From the IMG/VR virus record IMGVR_UViG_3300029846_000001: a stretch of DNA of 64,000 nt. The stretch is one strand, 5' to 3'. A program made the position numbers and the translations under genes. This DNA comes from a virus. Its lineage: Duplodnaviria > Heunggongvirae > Uroviricota > Caudoviricetes. This document shows positions 16,024 to 64,000 of the stretch, one piece after another; position 1 is the stretch's first letter; every line of letters starts with the position of its first letter. The notes beneath the pieces were generated by a model that was not told the origin of the DNA, searched no databases, and saw nothing but the letters and a program-made list of their open reading frames with translations.

Positions 16024-16251
16024 ATGGAAAATAAGGAAGATTACGTTGGTTACGAAGATCAAGAACTGTGTAACCGGTATTACAAAGAGGCTGAAGCCAT
16101 GAGACAAAAGCAGGACTGGTCTCGGCTTAGGGCTGTCCCTGCTCCGGCTAAGGGAACGCCATCGCCCGGCTGGGGTCAGCTTGGACGTGGAAATGGTGTC
16201 AGTGTTAAGTACGTTAGCATCAATTCAGGATTAGGAGGGGACAGATTATGA
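16024..16251 (+). CDS. hypothetical protein, 75 aa
   Basis: ORF; 4-nt overlap (ATGA) with the next ORF suggests coupling. Confidence 0.35.
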   Translation: MENKEDYVGYEDQELCNRYYKEAEAMRQKQDWSRLRAVPAPAKGTPSPGWGQLGRGNGVSVKYVSINSGLGGDRL

Positions 16252-16463
16252 CTGTAGAAGAATTGGCTAATAAAAGATACGGTGGCGAATTTGTTTTCAT
16301 GTTTGGTCATCTTGAAGGTAGAACAAGATTCGTTTTTGAATGCTTTGATCCAAGACCTGATCATGAAGGTAAAAACACTTATATAGTTTCTTATTTTGAT
16401 AAGGGACTTCGTAGAAGAGATGTGGTAGATGTGCCATGTTATATGAATGTTTTAGCAAAATAA
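16248..16463 (+). CDS. hypothetical protein, 71 aa
   Basis: ORF coupled to the upstream ORF. Confidence 0.4.
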   Translation: MTVEELANKRYGGEFVFMFGHLEGRTRFVFECFDPRPDHEGKNTYIVSYFDKGLRRRDVVDVPCYMNVLAK

Positions 16464-16483
16464 ATTAAAATATTGTAAATATC

Positions 16484-17119
16484 GTGGTTAGAATCGCATA
16501 TTTCGGAACCGATGGCTGCCCCGGTCATCACGTTATTCCAATACGAGGTAAATTTACGGAAGAGGATGTTAAGGTAATAGAATCTGTAGATTGTGATGAT
16601 TTCTATAAGGTGTTTGATGTCATGCGTTTTAAGATAGCTGAGTTTAAAGGATGGACGATATTAGGAATCCCGGCAAGCTTAGACGATCATAGACCTGGAA
16701 GCAAAACCGTTATCTTCATAGAGGGTGAAGCTAACGAAACTGACTTTATGGAAGTTATACAAGAGTATTCTTTTCTTAAAAATAAGGTAAAGAAACTTGC
16801 CGAATTGTATCATGATGGAGAATGGCTTGCGACTGGTAAATTGAATCAAGATCCGCCTACTAACAAGGAGCGGTTTCAATTTACGTTAGACAAGGATGAT
16901 ATTATTAACCTGATTAGGGGAGTCGATTTAGATCCTTATTCTGATGTGGCGAATGAAATGGAGAAAATCGGATTGGGATCATCATCTGATTCTTCATATG
17001 AGGGTCCCACATGGTCTTGGTTTGTTAACAAAGTAGAACTTTGGCAGAAGAATAATGTATGGGATAGTTTCTCCGCTGAGTTTTTGTGGGGTTTGTATTG
17101 TAGGATAAAGAAAGTATAG
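16484..17119 (+). CDS. hypothetical protein, 211 aa
   Basis: ORF (track start may be GTG); no recognisable motif. Confidence 0.5.
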   Translation: MVRIAYFGTDGCPGHHVIPIRGKFTEEDVKVIESVDCDDFYKVFDVMRFKIAEFKGWTILGIPASLDDHRPGSKTVIFIEGEANETDFMEVIQEYSFLKNKVKKLAELYHDGEWLATGKLNQDPPTNKERFQFTLDKDDIINLIRGVDLDPYSDVANEMEKIGLGSSSDSSYEGPTWSWFVNKVELWQKNNVWDSFSAEFLWGLYCRIKKV

Positions 17120-17142
17120 TAACAATTAATTTAAAACAAATC

Positions 17143-18006
17143 ATGGAATTAAAAGATTTTAAAGATGTGGTTAGAGTAATGACAAAAGAAGAGTTCGAAT
17201 CAACAATCGAAGAAGATATTAAATTCGTTGAGGGATTCAAGAATTTCTTAAAACATGATGATGCCACGAGGATAGTAGAGCATATCAAGTCTGTGTTAGA
17301 AGCATCAGTAGATTATTACTATCCTAATCATCCTGAAGTAGAATTTGAAAAAGATTTTAATATACAATACGATGTCAATAATATCTTGAACAAATACGGC
17401 CACACCGAAATGGGTATGTATAAAATACAGCTCTATATAGAGAATATTTTGGGTAGTATTCAAAACAAGAAGCCTGTAGACGTGGGAGAAGTCTCTGACG
17501 GATACCACACTTTCAATGAATTGTATCGGTATCGCATGTTGTATAACGCTGCCTTCTTTAATCTATTAGCCAGAAACGGACAGGTTGAAGTTTGCAAATC
17601 AAGGAGACACAGCGACGGAGAAAAATGCTTCGGTTCTGATGATTGGTTTATTGTGATGGCGATCCTACCTACCGGTCAGGTATCTAATCACTATGAAAGC
17701 AAATACTGGGATTTGTTTGATGTTCCTGAAAGAGAAACTGCTTTCGAATACGATGGCCATACACCAAATGAAGCTGCCGACAGACTTAAAAAGTATCTCA
17801 AATTGCCTCGTCGTGGCATGACATTCGAACAGGCTTTAGAACGGCTTAAATTAGGTCGTAAGATAAAAAGAATCGATTGGGGTAAAAAGTATATCTGTAT
17901 GTTTGACGTAAATATATTGATGGTAGATACAGGTCAAAAAGTAGCATCAAATTGGAATCCAACCGAACATGATATTATGTCTAATGACTGGGAGATTGCG
18001 GGATGA
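17143..18006 (+). CDS. hypothetical protein, 287 aa
   Basis: ORF; C-terminal W/K-rich segment (MTFEQALERLKLGRKIKRIDWGKKYICMFD...DWEI) of unknown function. Confidence 0.55.
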   Translation: MELKDFKDVVRVMTKEEFESTIEEDIKFVEGFKNFLKHDDATRIVEHIKSVLEASVDYYYPNHPEVEFEKDFNIQYDVNNILNKYGHTEMGMYKIQLYIENILGSIQNKKPVDVGEVSDGYHTFNELYRYRMLYNAAFFNLLARNGQVEVCKSRRHSDGEKCFGSDDWFIVMAILPTGQVSNHYESKYWDLFDVPERETAFEYDGHTPNEAADRLKKYLKLPRRGMTFEQALERLKLGRKIKRIDWGKKYICMFDVNILMVDTGQKVASNWNPTEHDIMSNDWEIAG

Positions 18007-18042
18007 GTTTGTATATCCGAAATAACATTAAAACAATATAAT

Positions 18043-18268
18043 TTTATTATAAGGTTTTAATGTACCATAAATGGTCCGGATATTAGCCTAAGCCTTGAAA
18101 CGAAGGCTACGTTATTTAAGAATAGATAGTTACCTACGGATGTTTACCCAAGTCTGTAGCTCTAAGGTAAGTGATTAAACAGTTCTGGTATTCAGGAACG
18201 GTGTTGCTTACTAAAAACCTTAAATAACATTGGCGATGGGTACTAACAGAGTTTTACTCTGACTTATG
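18043..18268 (+). ncRNA. candidate omega RNA (IscB guide RNA scaffold), copy A, directly upstream of iscB
   Basis: About 225-nt noncoding element ending 30 nt before the iscB ATG; a homologous inverted copy at 47930-48170 shows compensatory base changes (e.g. stem ctacgg/ctgtag versus caagga/ttcttg around the conserved loop atgtttacccaagt); small hairpin accataaatggt at its 5' side. Confidence 0.55.
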
Positions 18269-18297
18269 TTGAATAAACATTAAAAACGTTTGTAGAT

Positions 18298-19518
18298 ATG
18301 GTGTACGTACAAGACATAAATGGTAAACCTTTGATGCCCACAACAAGGCATGGTAAGGTTAGACGACTGCTTAAAGACAAAAAGGCAGTTGTTGTAAACC
18401 TATGTCCGTTTACCATCAAATTAATGTACGTTACATCTGATTACAAACAGGAAATTGTTTTAGGCGTTGATGCTGGAACTAAACATGTTGGTCTATCAGC
18501 AACGACGAAAAGCAAAGAACTTTACAGCAGTGAAGTAATTCTTAGAAATGATATCGTAGATCTTTTGTCTACCAGAAGAGAGCTACGGAAAGCAAGACGG
18601 AACAGGTTAAGATATAGAAAACCTCGTTTTGATAACAGAGTAAAAAGCAAGCGTCTAGGATGGATAGCACCTTCGGTGAAATACAAAGTAGACGCCCATA
18701 TTCGTGTTGTTGAAAATGTTTGCTCTATATTACCAATATCTCGTATTGTTATTGAAGTAGCTCAATTCGATACTCAAAAGATTAAGAATCCTGAGATATC
18801 AGGTAAAGAATACCAGGAAGGTGATCAACTTGAGTTGTGGAACACAAGGGAGTATGTTTTAGCAAGAGATGGACATAAATGCCAGTATTGTAAAGGCAAG
18901 TCAAAAGATTCTATACTGAATGTTCATCATATTGAGTCTCGAAAAACCGGAGGGGATTCCCCTTCTAATCTTATAACTTTATGTGAAACATGTCACAAAG
19001 AATACCATAAAGGTAATATAGATTTAAAGATCAGAAGAGGCAAGTCGCTTCGCGACGCAGCCGTAATGGGAATTATGAAATGGAGGTTGTATGAAGAGTT
19101 AAAATCCAGATACGACAGAGTTTTTATGACGTTTGGTTACATTACGAAACATAATCGGATTAAATATGGGATTGAAAAATCCCATACATCCGACGCGTTT
19201 GTCATTTCTAAGAATATTAATGCGAAACGAATCGAACGTCAATATTTAAAACGTTTAATTCGTAGACATAATAGACAAATACATAAAATGAAAATTTTAA
19301 AAGGGGGGAAGAAGAAAAACAATCAAGCTCCTTTTGAGGTTTTCGGTTTTAGGTTGTTTGATAAAGTGTTGTATAACAATAAAATATTCTTTGTTTATGG
19401 AAGGAGAAAATCAGGGAGTTTCAATATCAGGGATTTCAACGGAGAAAATTCAAAAGATGTTTCACGCAAAAAGTTTAAACTCATTAGAGGGAAGAGGCAT
19501 CCGATTATATTAAAGTAA
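18298..19518 (+). CDS. iscB: IscB, an OMEGA-system RNA-guided nuclease (IS200/IS605-associated Cas9 ancestor), 406 aa
   Basis: PLMP motif (DINGKPLMPTTRHGK); RuvC-I (LGVDAGTKHVGLS); Arg-rich bridge helix (RRELRKARRNRLRYRKPRF); RuvC-II (IVIEVAQFD); HNH (CQYCKG...NVHHIESRKTGGDSPSNLITLCETCHKEYH); RuvC-III (KSHTSDAFVIS). Confidence 0.85.
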   Translation: MVYVQDINGKPLMPTTRHGKVRRLLKDKKAVVVNLCPFTIKLMYVTSDYKQEIVLGVDAGTKHVGLSATTKSKELYSSEVILRNDIVDLLSTRRELRKARRNRLRYRKPRFDNRVKSKRLGWIAPSVKYKVDAHIRVVENVCSILPISRIVIEVAQFDTQKIKNPEISGKEYQEGDQLELWNTREYVLARDGHKCQYCKGKSKDSILNVHHIESRKTGGDSPSNLITLCETCHKEYHKGNIDLKIRRGKSLRDAAVMGIMKWRLYEELKSRYDRVFMTFGYITKHNRIKYGIEKSHTSDAFVISKNINAKRIERQYLKRLIRRHNRQIHKMKILKGGKKKNNQAPFEVFGFRLFDKVLYNNKIFFVYGRRKSGSFNIRDFNGENSKDVSRKKFKLIRGKRHPIILK

Positions 19519-19555
19519 ATGAACGGATTTAATAAATTTAATAGAAAAACGTATC

Positions 19556-19861
19556 ATGTATAATAAAGAAATAGTAATATGCGCGGCCATCTGGGTGCAG
19601 GACGGCAAGAAGCGTCCTCATCAGCCCACCAATATACCATCCGGCGCCGTATTTTGTGGATTGAGACATTGTTCTATCATTTCTCAGTTTGCGGCATACG
19701 GTATAGCTCATAAAAACCGCAGTGTTCAAGGATTTTTGACAAGCAAGAACCGGTTTCTGACGAGAGAAGAAGCGTCTGAGCTTGTTAAGAACAATAATCA
19801 GGAGATGGTAGTAGATAGGAATGCTATTAGAGAACAATTGTATTCAGAAGATTTATATTAA
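19556..19861 (+). CDS. hypothetical protein, 101 aa
   Basis: ORF immediately downstream of iscB. Confidence 0.45.
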   Translation: MYNKEIVICAAIWVQDGKKRPHQPTNIPSGAVFCGLRHCSIISQFAAYGIAHKNRSVQGFLTSKNRFLTREEASELVKNNNQEMVVDRNAIREQLYSEDLY

Positions 19862-36636: not shown

Positions 36637-37656
36637 TCATCGTTTTATCTTTTTAGACGGATCCCAATCCGAAGAGAAAGGGCATTCGTTTTTGTTATGT
36701 AATCCAAAGTCACAATAATAACACAGTGCTGACGGGCAGGGTAGCTTGTTTTGCGAAACAGGCTGGCTTAGGGTGGCACGCCGCTTGCTATACCTGGCTC
36801 CTTCTGCTCCCTGGATGTACGCTTGAAATGATTTTACACTATTATCTTCAAAATCATACATTTTAGACAAAGTGTCATTTAGCATCTCTATAGATTTTGT
36901 TTTACGTTCCTCATCTACCTTAACCTTTTGGTACTGCCTGGTCCTGGTAAAGAAATAGATGTTCATATCTGGTAGAACCCCACCATATCTTCTATAGATG
37001 TAAAATGAATATATAGGATGCTGTAAATTTGTTTCCAACTTCTTAGAATCAAAAACCTTATTACCTGATTTCCAATCTATGACATAATGGTGAACTACGT
37101 TCTTGCTTTTTATAGCCAGATGAAGGTCTACCGATCCTACTATGTACACATGAGTATGAATTACTCCATTTATGTTAACAGGCTTAGGAAGACGGTACGG
37201 CAGCACAAAATCTTCTTCGACTCCAACTATAGCGCTGTGTCTGATAAGTTTCTCGCAGGGATTAAGATCACTATCAGCTATCATAAACCTATTGCCGTCT
37301 TTTTTGAACAGATCCACAATCCAAGCAAGAAGCTCCCCGGATTGCTTCATGGCTATCATCATATTTTCCGGTGATTGCCAAGGTATGTCTTCTTGGTAAG
37401 CATAGTAACTTATAGCTTCCCCCAGGTCTTTTCCAGAAGGCTGTCTTCCGTTCTTAAAGAAGTATTCCAGTGTCTTATGGATAACCGTACCATAAGACGT
37501 AGCTTCTTGTTTTTCCGTAGACCTTTTGCCCTCTACGTAAGTCTTATACCATTTCATTGGACAAGTAAGAAACGTGTCTATCTGGGAATAAGATATGGCA
37601 AGACGTTTCACGCCATTAAACTCCTTATATAGCAAATGCGTTTCCGGGACCATCAT
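36637..37656 (-). CDS. Cas4/RecB-like PD-(D/E)XK nuclease with Fe-S cysteine cluster, 339 aa
   Basis: N-terminal Cys (TCPMKWY); core VDLHLAIK...IDWKSG; C-terminal CPSALCYYCDFGLHNKNECPF gives the C...C-x2-C-x(n)-C pattern of Cas4/AddB-type nucleases. Confidence 0.55.
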   Translation of the reverse strand: MMVPETHLLYKEFNGVKRLAISYSQIDTFLTCPMKWYKTYVEGKRSTEKQEATSYGTVIHKTLEYFFKNGRQPSGKDLGEAISYYAYQEDIPWQSPENMMIAMKQSGELLAWIVDLFKKDGNRFMIADSDLNPCEKLIRHSAIVGVEEDFVLPYRLPKPVNINGVIHTHVYIVGSVDLHLAIKSKNVVHHYVIDWKSGNKVFDSKKLETNLQHPIYSFYIYRRYGGVLPDMNIYFFTRTRQYQKVKVDEERKTKSIEMLNDTLSKMYDFEDNSVKSFQAYIQGAEGARYSKRRATLSQPVSQNKLPCPSALCYYCDFGLHNKNECPFSSDWDPSKKIKR

Positions 37657-38012
37657 AAGTCATTGTCTTTAAATCCTTCCGGGTAATATACGACATACTT
37701 CTTACCGTCCTCCGGCGTCATGGCGAACTGCATGTAGTTATTACGATTACGATGCTTGCCATCCAATCCTCGTTTCCAATACAGGATACCGTCTATATCC
37801 ACATAAGACCGTCCGCGTTCGGCTCTAACCACGTCCGTGTGTAGCAGATACCCGTCGGAAGACACGATCCACACTTTATCCCCTTTGTTTAAATAAGATA
37901 TTCTTTTTCTTACAACAACCTTTTTCTTATTATCCAATACAAATTCCTCATCCGTCATATTCTTCATCCTCCTCTTCTTCTGTTTCAAAATCAATTCCAT
38001 AACACTGATCAT
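37653..38012 (-). CDS. hypothetical protein, 119 aa
   Basis: ORF tiled in block. Confidence 0.45.
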   Translation of the reverse strand: MISVMELILKQKKRRMKNMTDEEFVLDNKKKVVVRKRISYLNKGDKVWIVSSDGYLLHTDVVRAERGRSYVDIDGILYWKRGLDGKHRNRNNYMQFAMTPEDGKKYVVYYPEGFKDNDL

Positions 38013-38055
38013 AATGTCCGGTCAGTTCTTCTGGTTCTAAATCTTGTCCAAAATC

Positions 38056-47663: not shown

Positions 47664-47836
47664 CGCAATTCCCCAATTAATGCTTCTTTAATATAATACA
47701 ATACAGTTTCAGCCTCATCCACATCTGCGGCTGCTCCCTCAAAATCAATTTCTCTCTCACTCTCTCCTCTTTTTACGTTGGCAATGAAAATAATTTCATC
47801 GTCAGCTTCTATTGTAACCTTATATTTTTTTCTCAT
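47660..47836 (-). CDS. small hypothetical protein (about 58 aa), coupled by ATGA overlap to the 439-aa gene
   Basis: Hand-translated MRKKYKVTIEADDEIIFIANVKRGESEREIDFEGAAADVDEAETVLYYIKEALIGELR*; below the ORF-track length cutoff. Confidence 0.3.
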   Translation of the reverse strand: MRKKYKVTIEADDEIIFIANVKRGESEREIDFEGAAADVDEAETVLYYIKEALIGELR

Positions 47837-47929
47837 ATCCCATATTCTATTAAATATATTTAAAGCTATTCATCCGTTTTAATACATCCCCTCGGAGACC
47901 TTTCGGTCTCCTTGGTAGATGTAAATCCC

Positions 47930-48170
47930 GTTAGGGATAAGTCAGGATTTCTCCTGTAAGTACCCATCGCCAATGTTATTTTGAGGTTTTATATAATGGC
48001 AACACTGTTTCGTCAAATACACTACTCCTGTTTAATCACCATTCTTAGAGCAAGAAACTTGGGTAAACATTCCTTGGTAACTATTTATTCTCAAATAACG
48101 TAGCCTTTGTTTCAAGGCTTAGGCTAATAACCCGATCTCTGAAAGAGATGTATTAAACTTTTATAATAGA
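47930..48170 (-). ncRNA. omega-RNA-like structured element, copy B (solo, inverted relative to copy A at 18043-18268)
   Basis: Reverse complement aligns with copy A across about 230 nt with compensatory substitutions in predicted stems; 5' variable hairpin atctctttcagagat; followed (in transcript direction) by the strong hairpin GGAGACC-GAAA-GGTCTCC (plus coords 47893-47910); no nuclease gene adjacent. Confidence 0.5.
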
Positions 48171-48187
48171 ATTATATTAGTTTAATA

Positions 48188-48709
48188 CTATTTGGGGTTA
48201 TATCTGTCAATTATTTCAATAATCAACCTACCTCTTTCTTTAATCATTCCCCTGCTTTCCATATCCAGTACCTTCTTTACCGCATACTTCCACACAAAAG
48301 GAAATTCTGTTTCAAGTTTATCAAATTCCATCCGGTCAAGATACATGTCGAATACCGTATGCTCCGATTCATGAAGGAAAACTATATTATCCCTGCAAGT
48401 AGCAACCGACTTATATATCCTTTTCGGAAGTATGTGACAGACGTTACATACTGTAGGAAAATGAATAGCCTTACCGGTCATAGACATTCGAATAGTACTC
48501 AACTCCTCCAACATAAGACGAAAAAACCCGGATAAATCCGGGTTCTCTAACTTTTTCTTCTTGCTGCTGTTTTTAATGGATGTAATTCTGTCTTTTTTCT
48601 TCGGAGTCAACTCTTTGCTCCTGCAAGCCTGGCATAAGCCATGACTTCTTATCATTACTTTTCGTCCGCATTTTTCGCAGACGTATAGCTTCTTTTCCTT
48701 GCTTTCCAT
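48188..48709 (-). CDS. hypothetical zinc-ribbon protein, 173 aa
   Basis: CEKCGRKV...CQACR N-terminal Cys pairs; basic linker. Confidence 0.5.
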   Translation of the reverse strand: MESKEKKLYVCEKCGRKVMIRSHGLCQACRSKELTPKKKDRITSIKNSSKKKKLENPDLSGFFRLMLEELSTIRMSMTGKAIHFPTVCNVCHILPKRIYKSVATCRDNIVFLHESEHTVFDMYLDRMEFDKLETEFPFVWKYAVKKVLDMESRGMIKERGRLIIEIIDRYNPK

Positions 48710-48894
48710 TCGAATAATAATGATATTATTGAAAAGAATAATCCCGCTGAAGCCAGTAGATAAGGTACGTTCATTAATAATTTATATACCTCGTCTGTCT
48801 TAATCACTATCAGAAGGAAAGCGCCTGCTGAAAGCAATGATATTATCGCCACAACAAGCGCTATGTTGGAAACTACATCAGCCTTACTCTTCAC
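48655..48894 (-). CDS. small membrane protein, 79 aa
   Basis: Two hydrophobic helices (IALVVAIISLLSAGAFLLIVI, LLASAGLFFSIISLLF). Confidence 0.4.
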   Translation of the reverse strand: MKSKADVVSNIALVVAIISLLSAGAFLLIVIKTDEVYKLLMNVPYLLASAGLFFSIISLLFEWKARKRSYTSAKNADEK

Positions 48895-49354
48895 TCTTCT
48901 TCTCGCCTAATTTTTCAGCTCCCTTCTGAAGATCGTATTTAAACACTTCAATGATTTTCGTTTCCACAATAGACTCGCAATTCCAGTCTCCTAACGTACC
49001 CTGCATACCTTTAGTCAACACAGCTTCGGCATCCTTAGGATTGCCGGCCTGGATATACATATAGCATGGAGTTTTCTTTTCTTTACCTTTCTTTTCATCC
49101 AGTGTAATGTAATTCACCTTACACTTATACCAGTACTCAGCTTCTCCGTTGAAGAAGATTTCCGACACTTTAATAGGATTAATTTTTACAACCTCGAAAG
49201 AATTGTACAAATCCTTGAAGATCTCCAACGATCTTGATTCTGCCTCTGTGTAAGACAAGGCATCCACTAAATACTTTTCAGTTACTTTCTTTTTTTTGCC
49301 GTTCTCGATATTATCAATCTCGGCTTTTACCGTAATTTCAAACCATCTATTCAT
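48884..49354 (-). CDS. hypothetical protein, 156 aa
   Basis: ORF tiled in block. Confidence 0.5.
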   Translation of the reverse strand: MNRWFEITVKAEIDNIENGKKKKVTEKYLVDALSYTEAESRSLEIFKDLYNSFEVVKINPIKVSEIFFNGEAEYWYKCKVNYITLDEKKGKEKKTPCYMYIQAGNPKDAEAVLTKGMQGTLGDWNCESIVETKIIEVFKYDLQKGAEKLGEKKSEE

Positions 49355-60586: not shown

Positions 60587-60685
60587 GTTGGTTATGTTTT
60601 AATTGTTATACATTCCGATTACTACTAATCTATAGAATATAGTTTTCAACTCTCAACCTATTGAATTTTGTAGAATAAACTCACA

Positions 60686-61200
60686 TTATGCTGTTTTAAA
60701 GCACTGTAAGTCTTAATTTTGTAGGAAAACCCTACATAATGCTGTTTTAAAACGCTGATCTGTTGAATTTTGTGGGAAGGGACTATAGAACGCTGTTTTA
60801 AAACGCTGATAGTCTTAATCTTGTTGAATAGTCTTAATTTTGTTGAGCTGATAGTCTTAATTTTGTTGAGAAGGGACTATAGAACGCTGTTTTAAAACGC
60901 TGATAGTCTTAATCTTGTTGAATAGTCTTAATTTTGTTGAGAGGAAGTGCCCTATTTTGTTGAGAAGGGACTATAGAACGCTGTTTTAAAACGCTGATCT
61001 GTTGAATTTTGGGGGAAGGGACTATAGAACGCTGTTTTAAAACGCTGATAGTCTTAATCTTGTTGAATAGTCTTAATTTTGTTGAGAGGAAGTGCCCTAT
61101 TTTGTTGAGAAGGGACTATAGAACGCTGTTTTAAAACGCTGATAGTCTTAATTTTGTTGAGAGGAAGTGCCCTATTTTGTTGAGAGGAAGTGCCCTCCCT
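60686..61200. repeat. complex iteron array: about 7 copies of aagggactatagaacgctgttttaaaacgctgat, about 9 of agtcttaat(c/t)ttgttga(a/g) and 4 of aggaagtgccctattttgttgag (candidate replication origin or regulator-binding array)
   Basis: Seen directly; the core gttttaaaac is a perfect 10-bp palindrome; sits in a 780-bp noncoding gap inside the minus-strand early block. Confidence 0.85.
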
Positions 61201-63900: not shown

Positions 63901-64000
63901 CTCTCTCCCATCACATAAACATCTTTCATATCCCTCATCACATAAACCTCTTTCTCATATCTCTCCCATCACATAAACATCTTTCATATCCCTCATCACA
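63901..64000. repeat. tandem direct repeats, about 58-60 bp period (ctctcccatcacataaacatctttcatatccctcatcacataaacctctttctcatat), running off the window edge
   Basis: At least 1.7 units visible; each unit is itself two diverged roughly 29-bp sub-repeats. Confidence 0.8.

Follow-up and report, generated by a model that had tools for sequence, protein, structure and literature searches.

How does a gene for an RNA-guided nuclease, with no transposase beside it, come to lie at many different sites in closely related phages? The question is raised by a locus in a 64,000-nucleotide stretch of tailed-phage DNA (Duplodnaviria; Heunggongvirae; Uroviricota; Caudoviricetes; IMG/VR record IMGVR_UViG_3300029846_000001), referred to here at its full length as the window, in which a first-pass annotation had recognized a phage-borne IscB gene preceded by a candidate omega RNA. 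That annotation left open whether the nuclease was domesticated or hitchhiking, and named inter-phage competition, host takeover and homing as possible uses. The carrier is a tailed phage of ~140-155 kb from the human gut. Here we argue that positions 18013-19555 probably constitute a non-autonomous element of the IS200/IS605 type (ISC/OMEGA), which would spread by RNA-guided homing between co-infecting phages.

The 406-amino-acid (aa) protein encoded at this locus is an IscB. Searched as a whole, it matches the NCBIfam equivalog NF040563 (‘RNA-guided endonuclease IscB’, guided_IscB) with 358.9 bits, against a cut-off of 175, and Pfam identifies an RRXRR domain (PF14239; residues 2-175, 4.8e-61) and an HNH domain (PF01844; residues 195-238, 4.7e-11) set into the split RuvC domain. 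The best matches in the PDB are the solved IscBs, OgeuIscB (7utn/7xht) being found at E = 2.6e-42 with the single sequence and at 1.5e-70 with a profile built from 14 sequences. The PLMP motif is present literally at residues 11-14, and residues 2-110 align to the OgeuIscB N-terminus. Among 14 homologues (39-88% identity), invariant residues include D58 (RuvC-I), E153 (RuvC-II) and H296/D299 (RuvC-III), which also align with OgeuIscB, the HNH residues C195, H210, H211, N224, C232 and H233, and R93, R97, R100, R101 and R103 within an Arg-rich stretch at ~93-114; residues ~334-406 are likewise conserved inside the family. The full IscB architecture claimed in the first-pass annotation is thus borne out by hidden Markov model, Pfam and structure matches, and by the invariance of the catalytic RuvC and HNH residues on alignment. 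The protein is predicted to cleave DNA in an RNA-guided, motif-dependent manner, and its gene is under purifying selection, as judged from ratios of nonsynonymous to synonymous substitution rates of 0.05-0.17 between the window copy and nine other copies. A full-length iscB open reading frame (ORF) is kept in 73 of 79 related loci and disrupted in the other six.

Two other identities were considered and rejected. A type II CRISPR-Cas9 is ruled out by the lack of any CRISPR-like array in the window and by the score of the Cas9d model (12.8 bits, cut-off 375), as well as by the size of the protein, whose alignment with OgeuIscB contains no REC-sized insertion; a protein-only phage HNH homing endonuclease is ruled out by the RuvC motifs and by the RNA described below.

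The boundaries of the element were drawn from ~200 copies in related gut-phage contigs, the loci of which carry L-numbers here. Similarity between the window and copies at unrelated sites starts at 18013 and stops at ~19555-19559. IMG/VR holds 340 relatives of the protein in viral contigs, the best 80 of which share 81% identity or more and come from contigs of ~80-160 kb; its 90%-identity cluster has 1,150 members, all metagenomic, and those that are named are called ‘hypothetical protein’. Copies occupy ~17-18 distinct right-flank sites with more than 30 distinct left junctions, giving 51 distinct junction pairs, and several contigs bear two or three copies, in one case (L030) only 4 kb apart. 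The element is present in some and absent from others of phages that are 94-98% identical. Comparison of occupied and empty alleles indicates that insertions are precise and cause no target duplication, the empty sites reading straight from the guide sequence into an ATG. The closest GenBank record, phage csAssE-Sib (OR575929, 151 kb, human gut, Caudoviricetes; hereafter Sib), with flanks 94% identical to those of the window, is without 18013-19552, and has a 266-bp Cys-rich small ORF standing there instead.

The 291-nucleotide (nt) leader upstream of iscB (18007-18297) contains, at 18038-18247 on the plus strand, a full-length match to the Rfam family HEARO (RF02033), the RNA class today called IscB omega RNA. 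Scoring 107.7 bits (gathering score 83, E = 1.7e-22), this covariance-model match upholds the earlier proposal of an omega RNA in the leader; its start, which had been placed at 18043, is moved by the closing helix and the alignment of copies to 18013, from which the scaffold runs to ~18270. In the closing helix, ATATCCG at 18013-18019 pairs with CGGATAT, located directly 5' of TAGCC / the invariant TAGCCUAAG, and the helix covaries in other copies (ATAACCC/GGGTTAT and TAATCG/CGATTA). Compensatory changes were also found at 8 predicted pairs of the internal helices. RNAalifold, applied to 25 copies, recovered the HEARO fold in part only, and the structural claim rests on the Rfam model and the compensatory pairs. 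The 5' RNA domain folds far above shuffled controls (z = -5.65 and -6.59). IscB-less derivatives, described below, are deleted right after ...CCTGACTTAT or ...CCUGACUUAU, placing the functional 3' limit of the scaffold near 18270.

The left boundary of the element coincides with the first base of the scaffold, and the guide position therefore falls in the flanking phage DNA. Across the copies the scaffold is conserved and the guide position differs at every insertion site; in the window the predicted guide covers the stop codon of the upstream gene. Relative to the L003-type allele, the window copy has lost 4 nt (TTTG, one repeat) beside the scaffold, and the L003-type guide followed by ATGTTCAA is present in Sib.

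On the opposite side of the element the flank follows a simple rule. In a first sample of 85 copies, ATG opens each of the 18 distinct right flanks. A re-analysis covered 197 copies, overlapping in part with the first sample and adding a second one fetched with an invariant 21-mer of the RNA; here 16 of 17 merged right-flank sites open with ATG, and C never occurs as the fourth base. Where a left junction could be compared with an unoccupied counterpart, 17 junctions continue with ATG there, against a background of 2% per position, and the other 13 proved on manual inspection to be boundary ambiguities resolving to ATG, or small-indel or duplication derivatives. In many cases the ATG is the start codon of the next gene; elsewhere it straddles two codons (GTA TGT in Sib), lies out of frame (in the WDGH/Tad2 gene) or is an internal Met codon (at some sites of the IscB-less elements). 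Because several of these ATGs are out of frame or gene-internal, the motif is a sequence requirement, and a mere preference for start codons is ruled out. That the ATG forms part of the element is ruled out by the single ATG in empty sites and by the pairing of the scaffold's first bases in the closing helix. ATG with a fourth base other than C thus appears to be the target-adjacent motif (TAM). In TnpA orientation it reads CAT beside the end, like the TTCAT of GstIscB.

At most sites the A-rich right end abuts the start codon of the downstream gene, and the element therefore replaces that gene's native translation-initiation region, which may limit the cost of insertion.

A second HEARO match (47956-48201, minus strand, 92.3 bits) is not followed by an IscB ORF among the window ORFs and belongs to a mini element, the ends of which are homologous to those of the full element. 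Its insertion point lies immediately in front of the ATG of a 59-aa ORF, and the element overlaps the last codons of a NinG-like gene. The same site is empty in Sib and in eight IMG/VR relatives, the insertion being exact, and the predicted mini guide is matched at 20 of 20 positions in nine unoccupied relatives, where it runs straight into ATGAGAAAAC (ATG). Such IscB-less elements make up ~20 of 115 omega RNA copies sampled from IMG/VR. Between the RNA and the right end of mini elements lies a conserved, structured module (window 47850-47945, minus strand; also in L115, L206 and others), consisting of ATCCCTAACGGGAT and a GGAGACC-GAAA-GGTCTCC hairpin, the stems of which covary in other copies. 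The module, whose DNA folds with z = -3.6 and -4.5, is not found in full-length elements, and could serve as a hairpin for transposase binding or as a signal for the 3' end of the RNA.

Guides of sibling elements find targets in the window as well. Eight 15-nt sibling guides match it with at most one mismatch, and each match is followed by ATG (Table 1). Three of these sites, empty in the window, are occupied elsewhere: 38001 by a mini element and 36641 by a full element in L019, and 49536 in L065-type phages. The window genome carries two elements and may be targeted by eight or more further ones.

Table 1. Positions in the window of the element, its mini derivative, and the empty sites matched by guides of sibling elements.
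Feature	Positions	Strand	Basis or remark
Whole mobile element	18013..19555	+	1,543 bp; omega RNA gene, iscB, short right end
Predicted guide (AGATTGCGGGATGAGTTTGT)	17993..18012	+	16-20 nt of phage DNA directly 5' of scaffold
Omega RNA scaffold (HEARO class)	18013..18270	+	Rfam match, covariation, folding, mini-element deletions
iscB gene	18298..19518	+	406 aa; PLMP, RuvC-I, Arg-rich bridge helix, RuvC-II, HNH, RuvC-III, C-terminal domain
Right end, TAM side (ATGAACGGATTTAATAAATTTAATAGAAAAACGTATC)	19519..19555	+	A-rich, 37 nt after iscB stop; conserved at different sites; adjoins start codon of next gene
Predicted TAM, ATG then T	19556..19559	+	Start codon of ORF 19556-19861
IscB-less mini element	47837..48201	-	365 bp; complete omega RNA scaffold, GC-hairpin module, similar right end
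ATG flanking mini element (predicted TAM)	47834..47836	-	Start codon of 59-aa ORF
Predicted mini guide (TATTGAAATAATTGACAGAT)	48202..48221	-	3' end of NinG-like gene
Empty target, guide of L020 element	16233..16250 (site 16247)	+	15/15, then ATG
Empty target, guide of L011 and L018 elements	16284..16301 (site 16298)	+	15/15, then ATG
Empty target, guide of L021 and L022 elements	16581..16598 (site 16595)	+	15/15, then ATG
Empty target in WDGH/Tad2-like gene, guide of L009, L013	17501..17518 (site 17515)	+	14-15/15, out-of-frame ATG
Empty target in Tad2-like domain region, guide of L014, L016	17884..17901 (site 17898)	+	15/15, then ATG
Empty target, L019 full element	36638..36655 (site 36641)	-	15/15, then ATGAAATA
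Empty target, L019 mini element	37998..38015 (site 38001)	-	15/15, then ATGGAATT
Empty target, type-2 IscB elements of L045, L049, L065	49533..49550 (site 49536)	-	14/15, then ATGAAGAG

The anatomy of the element, the ATG rule, the exactness of the insertions and the matching empty targets, as they appear in these comparisons, suggest how it may move. Read-through from the upstream gene, which has the same orientation, would make the omega RNA, whose 5' 16-20 nt would copy the left flank. IscB and this RNA would recognize the flank sequence only where ATG (fourth base not C) follows, which should be the case only in a genome or sister copy without the element, the scaffold's ATA... following in the carrier. 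The HNH and RuvC sites would then cut the empty site, and recombinational repair on the element-bearing genome in a co-infected cell would copy in the element together with neighbouring markers, the outcome being RNA-guided homing, a gene drive among phage genomes. The mini element at 47837-48201 would supply a second guide, and presumably uses the IscB encoded at 18298-19518 in trans. Reaching new ATG sites would be a separate matter: as mini elements insert cleanly at unrelated ATG sites, a transposase appears to be required, which is not encoded near any copy and would presumably be a Y1 TnpA supplied in trans by the host or from elsewhere.

In its other traits the element fits the IS200/IS605 (ISC) group: insertion is precise and motif-adjacent, many sites are used, and the ends are conserved. 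Its omega-RNA end is strongly structured, with the z values given above, and mini elements have a GC hairpin near the TAM-side end; the exception is the hairpin at one end of the full-length copies. No Y1 transposase was found in the window, either by Pfam among 51 window ORFs or with TnpA probes (IS608 and IS200, which detect each other at 1e-24), so that for the window both earlier statements, that there is no TnpA and no CRISPR array, hold. The lack of TnpA makes the element non-autonomous, and still allows membership of IS200/IS605.

Several results weigh against the homing account. No Y1 TnpA was detected with the same probes by tblastn in 2.2 Mb (1.2 Mb, then 2.2 Mb) around ~200 copies, and the TAM-side end of full-length copies has no TnpA-type hairpin (fold z -0.1 to +1.2). 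The C-terminal ~70 residues of the protein, presumably the TAM-reading domain, have no sequence match to solved IscBs, alone or by profile, nor did the C-terminal 85 aa alone match anything in the PDB. The ATG rule could in part be the transposase's specificity and not that of IscB; the ATG may be the IscB motif, the transposase target, or both as in Geobacillus. No convincing promoter was found upstream of the guide in a sigma-70 promoter/terminator scan, the consensus of which may not fit the host, and read-through transcription of the guide is therefore assumed. Finally, the guide of the window's full-length copy has no perfect ATG-adjacent target among the loci fetched. Together with the loss of TTTG, this marks the copy as perhaps a weakened driver, and the window's own full-length element may currently drive poorly.

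The variation among copies at one site bears on how new junctions arise. Two right-flank sites bear 12 and 8 different left junctions; the large steps between them end on upstream ATGs, and the intervening DNA is gone. At the first, the loci L005, L007, L009, L013, L014, L016, L018 and L020-L023 share the window's right junction (ATGTATAATAAAG), and their left junctions lie 110 to ~1,760 bp further upstream (compare window 16248-18012), the DNA between being missing. In several of these alleles the WDGH/Tad2-like gene (17143-18006) is cut short and has lost its anti-Thoeris-like domain. The other site, which precedes the DUF4494 gene (window 48884-49354, minus strand), repeats this pattern with its eight left variants. 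Three explanations fit such stepping: recombination between direct copies after a further insertion (L030 has two copies 4 kb apart), one-ended action of a transposase, or selection of deletions that create driving guides.

Precisely where guide meets scaffold (window 18009-18013), deletions of 4, 7, 10 and 31 nt as well as short duplications are seen in L003, L004, L007, L059, L062, L063, L067 and L072; they could be repair scars of nearby breaks, or simple slippage. Copies have also been rearranged internally: L011 and L020 are chimeras whose 5' RNA domain is of type 2 and whose body and right end are of type 1, the 5' domain of L015 is rearranged and palindromic, and L017 retains the IscB gene with its scaffold almost wholly lost. 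In L024 and L035 the left flank is the remnant of another element's right end. The chimeric copies and shuffled RNA modules point to frequent recombination among copies.

Homing without any transposase could account for some of this variation. The copies would then no longer serve as TnpA substrates, new junctions would arise by imprecise double-strand-break repair or by deletions beside the scaffold, and only guides followed by ATG in competing genomes would drive and become common. The 12 and 8 left junctions stepping upstream from ATG to ATG, and the 4-31 nt deletions and small duplications placed exactly at the guide/scaffold boundary, are what such a process would leave; the lack of TnpA in 2.2 Mb and of a TAM-side hairpin in full-length copies speaks for it too, as does the TnpB element described as spreading in plasmids without TnpA (PMC11870625). 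However, the insertions of mini elements at several unrelated ATG sites neither lose nor add bases, a hallmark of transposase action as opposed to break repair, and elements also occur in phages with flanks unrelated to those of the window, which homology-dependent homing cannot explain. We therefore regard this version as unlikely.

Equally improbable, in our estimation, is that IscB serves transposon maintenance only, a host TnpA excising the element during replication and IscB then re-cutting the vacated donor site on the sister genome so that the element is restored (peel-and-paste, then cut-and-copy), with no spread between phages. Precisely this role has been shown experimentally for GstIscB and TnpB, and guide, scaffold and motif are arranged identically in the present element. 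However, it needs frequent TnpA activity, of which no trace was seen with TnpA probes or in circle-junction searches, an exact search of IMG/VR for head-to-tail (circle or tandem) junctions of full and mini elements having returned 0 matches. Moreover, occupied alleles and perfectly targetable empty ones coexist in 94-98% identical phages, so that even a nuclease kept for maintenance would necessarily act between co-infecting genomes too.

Less probable again is a domesticated phage weapon, in which IscB would be kept not as part of a selfish element but for destroying competitors, by marker exclusion or a superinfection advantage. Strong purifying selection on the protein and guides that match sibling phages are consistent with it, and advantages of this sort are known from phage homing endonucleases (review PMC13565253). 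Against it stand the varying copy number and position among near-identical phages, the 6 of 79 copies that are disrupted, the existence of parasitic mini elements, and a guide that is never fixed, all of them features typical of selfish mobile DNA. The carrier phage may still gain some incidental benefit. The word ‘domesticated’ in the first-pass annotation finds no support in a unit with discrete ends, many sites, presence and absence among 94-98% identical phages, pseudogene copies and mini derivatives, whereas ‘hitchhiking’ and ‘homing’ are what the sequence evidence favours; inter-phage competition would be a by-product of these. That the nuclease is aimed at the bacterial chromosome or at a locus of host defence, as the ‘host takeover’ suggested earlier would have it, is scarcely credible. 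No evidence was found in its favour; what occupies the guide position is in every case flanking DNA of the phage itself, different at each site, and the mini and L003-type guides match the empty allele of sibling phages exactly.

Spread by RNA-guided homing, with a transposase supplied in trans for new sites, therefore remains the reading we favour, and it invites a broader one, which we offer tentatively and consider doubtful as a whole. These elements may be self-retargeting gene drives without a transposase of their own, which ratchet upstream and replace accessory genes (here the Tad2-like one), while IscB-less mini elements parasitize the nuclease in trans and an ATG-only motif makes the enzyme an unusually permissive compact editor. 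In such a ratchet, a scaffold joined to a new, ATG-followed upstream sequence could cut all genomes that keep the intervening DNA, older insertion alleles included, and this ability would favour the spread of the allele.

The surroundings of the element add some detail. The upstream gene (17143-18006) encodes a WDGH domain and a C-terminal Tad2-like (anti-Thoeris) domain. Further upstream, a 211-aa ORF (16484-17119, GTG start, no Pfam match; region 16475-17110) is missing from Sib, and contains the empty target site 16595. Two stretches, 60661-61196 and 63902-64000, hold a complex array of tandem and interspersed repeats with 19-23 nt motifs, for example ATAGTCTTAATCTTGTTGA, in periods of 51, 94, 145 and 239, and a 27-31 nt repeat that the end of the window truncates. 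Neither is CRISPR-like; they may be iterons or regulatory repeats.

A scan of bacterial genomes did not find the host, its best matches being a ‘Vibrio olivae’ contig and a 6.9-kb contig binned as Phocaeicola. The former (L082; NZ_JBHMEP010000019.1, ‘Vibrio olivae’ CECT 8064, 20-kb contig), which includes an IscB element, is ~95-97% identical over 9.2 kb to the IMG/VR gut-phage loci L035, L038 and L039; gut-phage sequence in the assembly of a marine Vibrio suggests contamination or mis-binning and not a host signal. The host is possibly a member of the Bacteroidota.

A phage-borne IscB is not in itself a surprise; IscB-like proteins are common in phages. What is added here is a population picture, composed of occupied/empty pairs, a predicted ATG motif, mini elements and the stepwise replacement of accessory genes, which we did not find described in the searchable literature. 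Labels such as ‘HNH endonuclease’, used for the large phage family PHROG 119, or ‘hypothetical protein’ under-describe RNA-guided nucleases with readable guides, and natural occupied/empty pairs with exact guide and motif targets make RNA-guided inter-phage homing directly testable. The elements appear to remove or replace small neighbouring accessory genes, including a candidate anti-Thoeris domain, and if so would be a force shaping phage accessory regions. A 406-aa IscB with a putative three-base motif would also be of practical interest if that motif is confirmed.

Of the characterized systems, the closest in layout is GstIscB of ISGst5 from Geobacillus stearothermophilus, whose geometry and TTCAT motif have been demonstrated experimentally (Meers et al., bioRxiv 10.1101/2023.03.14.532601); most IscB elements are non-autonomous, according to the same work. 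Like the GstIscB element, that of the window is a non-autonomous member of the IS605 family without an adjacent TnpA, has its omega RNA upstream of iscB with the guide taken from the flank there, and has its motif at the opposite end. TTCAT reads ATGAA in the orientation of iscB, which is among the commonest flanks of the gut-phage copies, and the catalytic numbering is nearly superimposable (D58 and H209/H210 in GstIscB, D58 and H210/H211 here). Unlike the GstIscB element, the present one resides in a phage genome instead of a bacterial chromosome, and only ATG is invariant in its flank; its full-length copies have no recognizable TAM-side hairpin and no known partner TnpA.

OgeuIscB (7utn, 7xht) has the same domain order, aligns over residues 2-333 (E 2.6e-42) and uses a HEARO-type RNA. 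It is larger, at 496 aa against 406; the window IscB is without the insertion found at OgeuIscB residues ~113-144, and its C-terminal domain is not alignable by sequence. The motif of OgeuIscB is NWRRNA, unlike the ATG of the window family.

Among phages, 37 GenBank records match the window IscB, with identities of at most 52%, and PHROG 119 (‘HNH endonuclease’) covers residues 1-313 at 1.8e-66. HEARO together with an ‘HNH endonuclease’ occurs in cultured phages, namely Silviavirus, Clostridium phage c-st, and Ralstonia, Nodularia and Microcoleus phages, HEARO having been noted in Silviavirus genomes (PMC13346280). These records are labelled only HNH endonuclease or hypothetical protein, and in the literature searched we found no description of the ends, guides, motif or population polymorphism of such cultured-phage IscB-like proteins.

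In mechanism, two further systems are instructive. A TnpB element of the IS605 family is described as spreading through a plasmid population without TnpA, as a gene drive (PMC11870625), and a review (PMC13565253) terms such behaviour ‘non-restorative transposon homing’, calling the phage route theoretical. As in that plasmid drive, the nuclease proposed here would cut the orthologous empty site and repair would copy the element in without TnpA; unlike there, the nuclease is IscB and not TnpB, and the genomes are phages and not plasmids. The free-standing homing endonucleases Seg and Mob of T-even phages similarly have their genes inserted among conserved phage genes; they cut the corresponding allele in a relative that co-infects the cell, and carry flanking markers along as they spread. 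In contrast to Seg and Mob, whose recognition is by protein only, the target of the present element would be set by an RNA copied from the flank, so that each new junction would make a new specificity.

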